In this document: positions 10,753-10,830 of the stretch, one piece after another
Layout of the letters: every line of letters begins with the position of its first letter
Position numbering within the stretch: the stretch's first letter is position 1
Origin: Escherichia coli
GTDB taxonomy: Bacteria; Pseudomonadota; Gammaproteobacteria; Enterobacterales; Enterobacteriaceae
Strand: one strand, 5' to 3'
Assembly: GCF_003334335.1 (NCBI RefSeq)
Contig: NZ_QOWQ01000059.1
Length of the DNA: 15,540 bases
Position numbers and translations under genes: made by a program
The notes under the pieces: generated by a model
Told to the model about the DNA's origin: nothing
Seen by the model: the letters and a program-made list of their open reading frames with translations, nothing else
Databases searched by the model: none

Positions 10753-10830
10753 CTTCCCTGCCGATTAGCCCCCCCCCTTTCCTCTTTGTTTTCCGACCAC
10801 ATTCACCGGATAAATTTTATTCTCCAGTGT

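Follow-up and report, generated by a model that had tools for sequence, protein, structure and literature searches.

The window analysed here, a 15,540-nt stretch of Escherichia coli DNA (contig NZ_QOWQ01000059.1 of RefSeq assembly GCF_003334335.1), carries nine consecutive C residues at 10769-10777 (context TTAG-C9-TTTCC) in the intergenic region between yaiO and frmR, where an earlier note made from the sequence alone had placed them. The tract starts 46 nt 3′ of the yaiO stop codon (TGA, 10720-10722), and 76 nt separate it from the frmR −35 hexamer TTGACA, which begins at 10854; both distances match those estimated earlier (about 45 and 75 bp). The identities of yaiO and frmR are backed by the RefSeq annotation of matching genomes. 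The region comprises the following features:

9949..10722, plus strand: yaiO coding sequence, for an outer-membrane beta-barrel protein, with the tract in its 3′ untranslated flank (ORF list; RefSeq annotation of matching loci).
10731..10752, plus strand: 7-bp GC hairpin (GCCGCCC / GGGCGGC, 8-nt loop) just after the yaiO stop, with no U-run after it (RNA fold; terminator scan).
10753..10807, plus strand: C-rich, G-poor, predicted-unpaired spacer that includes the tract and forms the core of the strongest C>G bubble in the window; a candidate rut region on the basis of composition and fold.
10769..10777, plus strand: C9 homopolymer, a polymorphic mononucleotide repeat that ranges from C6 to C13 elsewhere in E. 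coli (window sequence; genome comparison).
10806..10817, no strand assigned: left boundary of the frm module conserved in all lineages; leftward of it lies a variable block that includes the tract (partial matches and sequences).
10832..10884, no strand assigned: FrmR operator, a perfect 19-nt inverted repeat with two ATAC-N9-GTAT sites (10834-10850, with G6; 10866-10882, with C6) (repeat and pattern search).
10854..10882, plus strand: frmR sigma-70 promoter, TTGACA, 17-nt spacer, TAGTAT (promoter scan).
10909..11184, plus strand: frmR coding sequence from its annotated start; an upstream in-frame ATG at 10888 is not conserved (ORF list; genome comparison).

The C9 run is the sole homopolymer longer than 7 nt in the window and its sole run of C or G longer than 6. 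Judged by base composition, such a run is only mildly surprising in one window: a dinucleotide-preserving shuffle of the window is expected to contain 0.30 runs of 8 C or more, and 17 of 200 such shuffles held at least two 8-mer matches, the same 8-mer count as the window. The significance of the tract rests on comparative data, namely its length polymorphism, which are stronger than composition. Long C runs are rare in E. coli because 93% of the mononucleotide repeats of K-12 consist of A/T (PMC7015867), and the indel rate of the species climbs exponentially with run length (PMC11754648). The yaiO-frmR spacer is single-copy per genome, judged from genome matches to a spacer query, and we rejected a dispersed repeat as the source of the tract on this ground.

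We compared the spacer across 5,426 complete E. coli genomes using a 211-nt query, which found a match in 5,412 of them and a full-length match in 4,281. The full-length matches span 208 to 213 bp, and in individual loci the difference lies in the tract. Alleles of C6, C7, C8, C9, C10, C11 and C13 (the last in strain G8) were read directly with otherwise invariant flanks, and a divergent lineage carries the interrupted sequence GGCCCCTC at the tract position. The comparison of tract length proposed in the earlier note therefore reveals a tract that is far from invariant; its description as uncommon and slippage-prone also holds.

To count alleles we used queries of about 94 nt, for which a single gap lowers identity below 99%, so that the top identity band consists of exact matches. 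It comprised 1,244 C7 records, 943 of C8, 402 of C9, 723 of C10, 143 of C11 and 95 of C12, each figure including about 88 partial matches from genomes in which an insertion sequence (IS) splits the tract. After subtraction, the exact-flank counts among 4,269 records were approximately 1,156 for C7, 855 for C8, 635 for C10, 314 for C9, 55 for C11 and 7 for C12. An evenly spaced sample of 58 full-length records yielded similar alleles (C7 ~29%, C8 21%, C9 10%, C10 22%, C11 10%, interrupted ~7%). The commonest alleles are thus C7, C8 and C10, with C9 a minority of ~7-10%, although the RefSeq strain set is biased and these frequencies are approximate and descriptive only.

Homopolymers of 8 or more are frequently miscounted in assemblies built from long reads only, and some of the plus-or-minus-one differences among RefSeq assemblies will be errors of this kind; ER1709, a K-12 derivative with the K-12 IS2 in yaiX, shows C9 versus C10 in other K-12 records. 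Even so, we regard it as very unlikely that the polymorphism, or at least the C9 of the window, results from homopolymer miscalling during sequencing or assembly. Reference-grade genomes disagree with one another (MG1655 and W3110 have C10, BL21(DE3) has C8), derivatives of the B strain are consistently C8, and the alleles go with flanking SNP haplotypes, C9-C11 being linked to A at 10865 and C6-C8 to C or a third variant. A spread from C6 to C13 is also too wide for errors of one unit in either direction. Furthermore, five independent assemblies, all of natural isolates, reproduce positions 78-15540 of the window (15.46 kb) with the top alignment score and no length difference, C9 included. 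The polymorphism is heritable and mostly real. At least 22 K-12-type laboratory assemblies (MG1655, C600, J53 and a series of 19 clones taken as K-12 by inference from their MG1655-like coordinates) all carry C10, and since K-12 laboratory clones are almost all C10, the mutation rate is probably too low for visible switching within cultures.

Over the 1,236 nt that run from the start of yaiO to the end of frmR, a single C in the tract is all that distinguishes the window from MG1655. Two further genomes, NCTC9100 (C8) and MARGA_4 (C10), have an identical pair of SNPs against the window across 15,463 nt, and the tract is their sole other difference; it follows that tract length evolves more quickly than substitutions build up elsewhere in this 15.5-kb haplotype. 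The interrupted allele GCCCCTC has the same length as C7 and is identical in three genomes of the divergent lineage; all four divergent records in the 58-record sample likewise had a C7-equivalent length. In the few genomes examined, this interrupted allele is length-stable. The locus therefore displays the hallmarks of a microsatellite: a homopolymer of at least ~8 bp, single-unit polymorphism with conserved flanks, change faster than substitution and, in a small sample, stable interrupted alleles.

Among other species, only E. whittamii has a homologous spacer downstream of yaiO, and there it is longer, non-homopolymeric and pyrimidine-rich; at two Citrobacter yaiO loci the downstream sequence is unrelated. 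Two substitutions (G to C and T to C) convert GCCCCTC into an uninterrupted C7, the allele seen most often. The comparisons thus show a young, E. coli-specific microsatellite. An older GCCCCTC lost its two interruptions to give a pure C7, past the threshold for slippage, and replication slippage has since added or removed single C:G pairs, producing the C6 to C13 alleles of present lineages. The C9 of the window lies one step from the C10 allele of K-12.

The class itself is well known. Polymorphic mononucleotide repeats in non-coding E. coli DNA were reportedly described by Gur-Arie and colleagues in Genome Research in 2000, and repeat-based strain typing in E. coli is said to have been reported by Diamant and colleagues in AEM in 2004; the locus may already have figured in older repeat typing as yaiN, the former name of frmR. 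Like those repeats, the tract is an uninterrupted intergenic homopolymer with conserved flanks whose length changes in single-base steps by replication slippage. To this the present analysis adds allele counts from 5,426 genomes, a range of C6 to C13 and a connection with the insertion sequence ISEc20, described below.

In practical terms, the tract is a very fast-evolving marker that splits otherwise identical 15-kb haplotypes. It is also a place where assemblies and variant callers will disagree, and single-base indels here should not be over-read. The parental strains of a study on LTSP differ from the authors' own K-12 reference, ZK126, at frmR/yaiO (PMC7858067), and this difference among close laboratory relatives is plausibly an indel in the tract.

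About 1,130 genomes match the 211-nt query only from ~10806 or ~10817 onward. Homology to the window begins with CCGGATAAATTTT (~10806) in ST131, where a divergent tauA adjoins frmR, and with TTATTCTCCA (~10817) in O157:H7, where the neighbour is an fbp-type ferric ABC transporter; neither has the yaiO block or the tract. Both keep an intact frmR promoter and operator, and the conserved part starts ~28-40 bp 3′ of the tract. Because lineages without the tract retain the frmRAB promoter and operator, the tract lies outside frmR control: it is a piece of the variable yaiS-yaiP-yaiX-yaiO block rather than of the control region of frmRAB.

The block as a whole (window ~7400-10817) is a variable island, present in ~4,270 of the 5,426 genomes, with its right junctions just upstream of the FrmR operator. 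Within it, yaiX (9237-9947, acetyltransferase) is intact in the window and holds an IS2 in K-12; the window as a whole is therefore not K-12. In BL21(DE3) an IS1 stands in place of yaiS-yaiP-yaiX, and the region has been struck repeatedly by insertion sequences. The yaiS gene (~7511-7921, PIG-L family deacetylase) is annotated as an incomplete pseudogene lacking its C-terminus in genomes of the window haplotype; in MG1655 the annotation shows a full 558-bp gene.

The E. coli FrmR site is a 9-bp GC-rich tract between ATAC and GTAT (Denby et al. 2016, PMC5146963), and proteins of the CsoR/RcnR family are thought to sense the shape of such GC tracts (PMC5146963). The earlier note had suggested that the C9 run may relate to the C/G-tract motifs that FrmR recognises. 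An auxiliary or decoy FrmR site at the tract would be in keeping with this family behaviour and with the G6 and C6 runs in the operators, and the tract shares with FrmR operators (PMC5146963) a run of C:G pairs. Unlike them, however, it lacks the defining ATAC/GTAT flanks and dyad symmetry, varies in length and is not conserved with frmR. A search of the region for ATAC-N9-GTAT with at most one mismatch returned only 10834-10850 and 10866-10882 and nothing at the tract, and an inverted-repeat search placed the tract in no repeat. A length of 6 to 13 is hard to square with a site of fixed spacing, and the tract is absent upstream of frmR in E. whittamii as well as in ST131 and O157:H7, the latter two keeping the operator without it. 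The suggestion accordingly did not survive the comparison: neither the operator pattern nor conservation with frmR is found at the tract, and we rejected an auxiliary site there as extremely improbable.

Several further observations concern the frmR control region itself. The common SNP at 10865 (A/C) lies directly 5′ of the second FrmR site, in the −35/−10 spacer, and 10864 also varies (G or T). Another common SNP, 10888 A/G, abolishes the upstream in-frame ATG in most lineages, which favours the annotated frmR start at 10909 over a longer, 98-aa ORF. The operator palindrome, within window positions 10817-10900, gave sub-threshold Rfam matches to eukaryotic miRNAs and snoRNAs (best 26.4 bits versus a gathering score of 79), which are spurious matches to a DNA palindrome. 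Around the tract, Rfam gave nothing credible, only these sub-threshold matches to the operator palindrome, and we rejected a known RNA as an explanation of the tract on that account. A 2026 paper on formaldehyde resistance in isolates from urinary tract infections does not mention the spacer.

We then considered the tract as part of the yaiO transcript. The earlier note had raised the possibility of a C-rich terminator tail. No intrinsic terminator was found in a scan between yaiO and frmR, and the hairpin at 10731-10752, which lies 16 nt upstream of the tract and is followed by CUUCCCUGCCG, has no U-run; we rejected the reading of the tract as an intrinsic-terminator tail for these reasons. 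What stood of the suggestion is the C-rich spacer, whose composition agrees with published criteria for Rho loading. Windows of 60 nt in 10753-10807 contain 25-27 C versus 7-9 G, a peak C-G excess matched by ~0.01% of all 60-nt windows on both strands, and the spacer is the most C-rich, G-poor stretch of the whole 15,540 nt. With the 78-nt sliding window that Nadiras et al. 2018 (PMC6144790) use to define C>G bubbles, the bubble here measures 155 nt, with an area of 2,385 %-bp and a peak of 28.2%, the highest in the window. It includes 12, 9 and 7 starts of the motif [(YC)N9-13]n for n = 4, 5 and 6, respectively. The spacer therefore has both elements described for rut regions, a C>G bubble of ~80 nt or more on the transcribed strand and [(YC)N9-13]n with n of at least 4 (PMC6144790). 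Neither the MFE fold nor the centroid fold pairs the tract or its flanks, and folding of the region as a whole does not exceed that of shuffles (z = −0.63).

In vitro, Rho terminated transcription on all templates whose bubble exceeded 78 bp in length or 700 in area (Nadiras et al. 2018, PMC6144790), although C>G bubbles far outnumber real Rho terminators (PMC6144790). Because the spacer between the co-oriented yaiO and frmR is untranslated (it follows the yaiO stop), predicted to lack structure and endowed with a bubble above these thresholds, we tentatively favour Rho loading in the spacer as the most likely end of yaiO transcription, while giving it a somewhat less than even chance of being correct. 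The likeness to rut regions (PMC6144790) is one of composition: an untranslated, predicted-unstructured, C-rich and G-poor segment with spaced YC dimers. A pure C9 run, by contrast, is neither a usual nor a required feature of such regions. The Adams 2021 supplements contain no entry for yaiO or frmR.

If this reading is correct, the C-rich, G-poor and unstructured spacer would load Rho, and transcription of yaiO would end before frmRAB. The tract would supply YC dinucleotides to the loading site and yet be dispensable for it. With the tract deleted in silico, the bubble is still 146 nt long with an area of 1,485, above the published thresholds. From C6 to C11 the area rises from 2,085 to 2,585, about 10% either way, or ~100 %-bp per C. 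As the bubble persists without the tract, the effect of length on Rho loading is predicted to be graded and small. Changes in length would then be near neutral, with no switch involved; such neutrality is probable, judging from the sequence, and the broad allele distribution without a preferred length fits it.

A stronger claim, in line with the main idea of the earlier note, would be that the tract is a contingency (tuning) locus, in which slippage heritably and reversibly alters read-through from yaiO into frmRAB, for instance via Rho loading. The co-orientation of the two genes with no intrinsic terminator between them, the true length variability of the tract and its position at the peak of the C>G bubble, where each extra C adds area, are all in its favour. 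We nevertheless consider it very unlikely. Homopolymers that work as switches sit within an ORF, within a promoter spacer or between an activator site and its promoter, and the tract occupies none of these positions; the bubble stays above the thresholds when the tract is deleted; the ~1,130 genomes lacking both tract and yaiO keep the same frm control region; and K-12 laboratory clones are stably C10. A more specific version, according to which each C gained or lost would shift Rho loading whenever yaiO is transcribed and hence the FrmR-independent basal expression of frmRAB, with ISEc20 insertion as a coarser uncoupling, seems to us a little less likely again. If tuning of this kind did operate, each lineage's tolerance of formaldehyde would be set in a heritable but reversible way.

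Phase-variable poly-C or poly-G promoter tracts, such as those of Bordetella fim2/fim3 and Neisseria opc and porA, are ~9-15 bp long, lie upstream of a gene and change by slippage. They sit between the −35 and −10 elements or between an activator site and the promoter, and their length sets expression. The tract resembles them as a C or G run upstream of a gene with slippage-altered length, but unlike them it sits outside the conserved promoter module, with the estimated frmR transcription start ~113-121 bp further downstream, and whole lineages do without it. None of the three positions typical of phase-variable repeats (ORF, −35/−10 spacer, activator-promoter gap) is occupied by it. A promoter scan of both strands found only the frmR promoter and no second one, and we rejected a promoter-spacer role accordingly. 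The frmR promoter is on record as a constitutive RpoD promoter between yaiO and frmR (PMC3946193).

On the minus strand, the run is spanned by a 65-aa ORF (10802-10605), in which it would be read as Gly codons. A frameshift switch in a small antisense gene would be consistent with the presence of this ORF in the window and with a frame that is intact only with C6 and C9, as in phase-variable genes. The commonest alleles (C7, C8 and C10), however, shorten the ORF to 11-20 aa, it is almost wholly antisense to the coding end of yaiO, no GGAG comes closer than 22 nt to the ATG on its upstream side, a distance too great for a ribosome-binding site, and the minus strand offers no promoter-like site. 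Since the ORF is intact only in the C6 and C9 alleles, we rejected it, and the chance that it represents a real switch is close to nil.

The genomes with a split tract were analysed with a junction query, which located ISEc20, an IS110-family element of ~1.45 kb, inside the yaiO-frmR C tract of 87 genomes, in a fixed orientation. In strains 163 (locus 1551-3010) and AR_0162 the element is flanked by TTAGCCCCCC on one side and CCCCCCTTTCC on the other, with six C at each junction, and in strain 95-3322 by five C at each junction, together with different yaiO, frmA and transposase alleles. The different junctions and alleles of 95-3322 argue for at least two independent insertions, and the tract is a recurrent ISEc20 insertion target. 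Across the genome collection, 1,439 genomes contain left ends like that of ISEc20, at 2,345 places in all. Among the other copies examined, the element has C runs of the transposase strand on both sides at fadL-yfdF, in a phage terminase gene, at mrcB-hrpB and in a genomic island; for an insertion in a penicillin acylase gene, a C run is present at the right junction, the sole side recovered. The empty fadL-yfdF site of MG1655 is a C9, and the site is occupied in strain M217. ISEc20 thus appears to target poly-C runs generally.

Taken together, we consider it likely that the tract is a slippage microsatellite outside frmRAB control, lying in a putative Rho-loading spacer, with near-neutral length and a role as an ISEc20 target; recurrent insertion of ISEc20 into the C run is a side effect. 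For frmRAB biology the consequences are small: the tract need not be counted among the regulatory elements, and the actual control region begins about 30-40 bp further downstream. The regulatory readings of the tract are unsupported or predicted to be weak, and the homing of ISEc20 to poly-C is the lead most worth following: the rare long poly-C runs of E. coli, such as this tract and the C9 after fadL, would be ISEc20 homing sites. If confirmed, this would tie microsatellite length variation to the availability of IS targets.

IS621, another IS110-family element, reportedly uses sequence-specific target sites and a bridge RNA, in work attributed to Durrant and colleagues and to Hiraizumi and colleagues, both from 2024. 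ISEc20 resembles IS110-family elements such as IS621 in that many unrelated loci carry it at one shared short motif and always in one orientation. It differs from IS621-type targeting in that its motif is a homopolymer run rather than a mixed sequence and that its guide RNA is putative. The 228-nt non-coding left end of ISEc20 is predicted to form a stable fold (z = −2.97); by inspection, one domain combines C5 and G6 segments, and the other contains GTAACG and AATAGGGGGCA, which match the IS ends. An Rfam search of the element returned no match. As a lead only, an IS110-type bridge RNA that targets a C:G homopolymer would be expected to have this layout, and ISEc20 would, if this were confirmed, be a natural homopolymer-directed member of the bridge-RNA recombinase family. 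The C9 at fadL-yfdF in MG1655 is a second C9 run in K-12 and, like the tract, lies in the 3′ flank of a gene for an outer-membrane beta-barrel protein (fadL).
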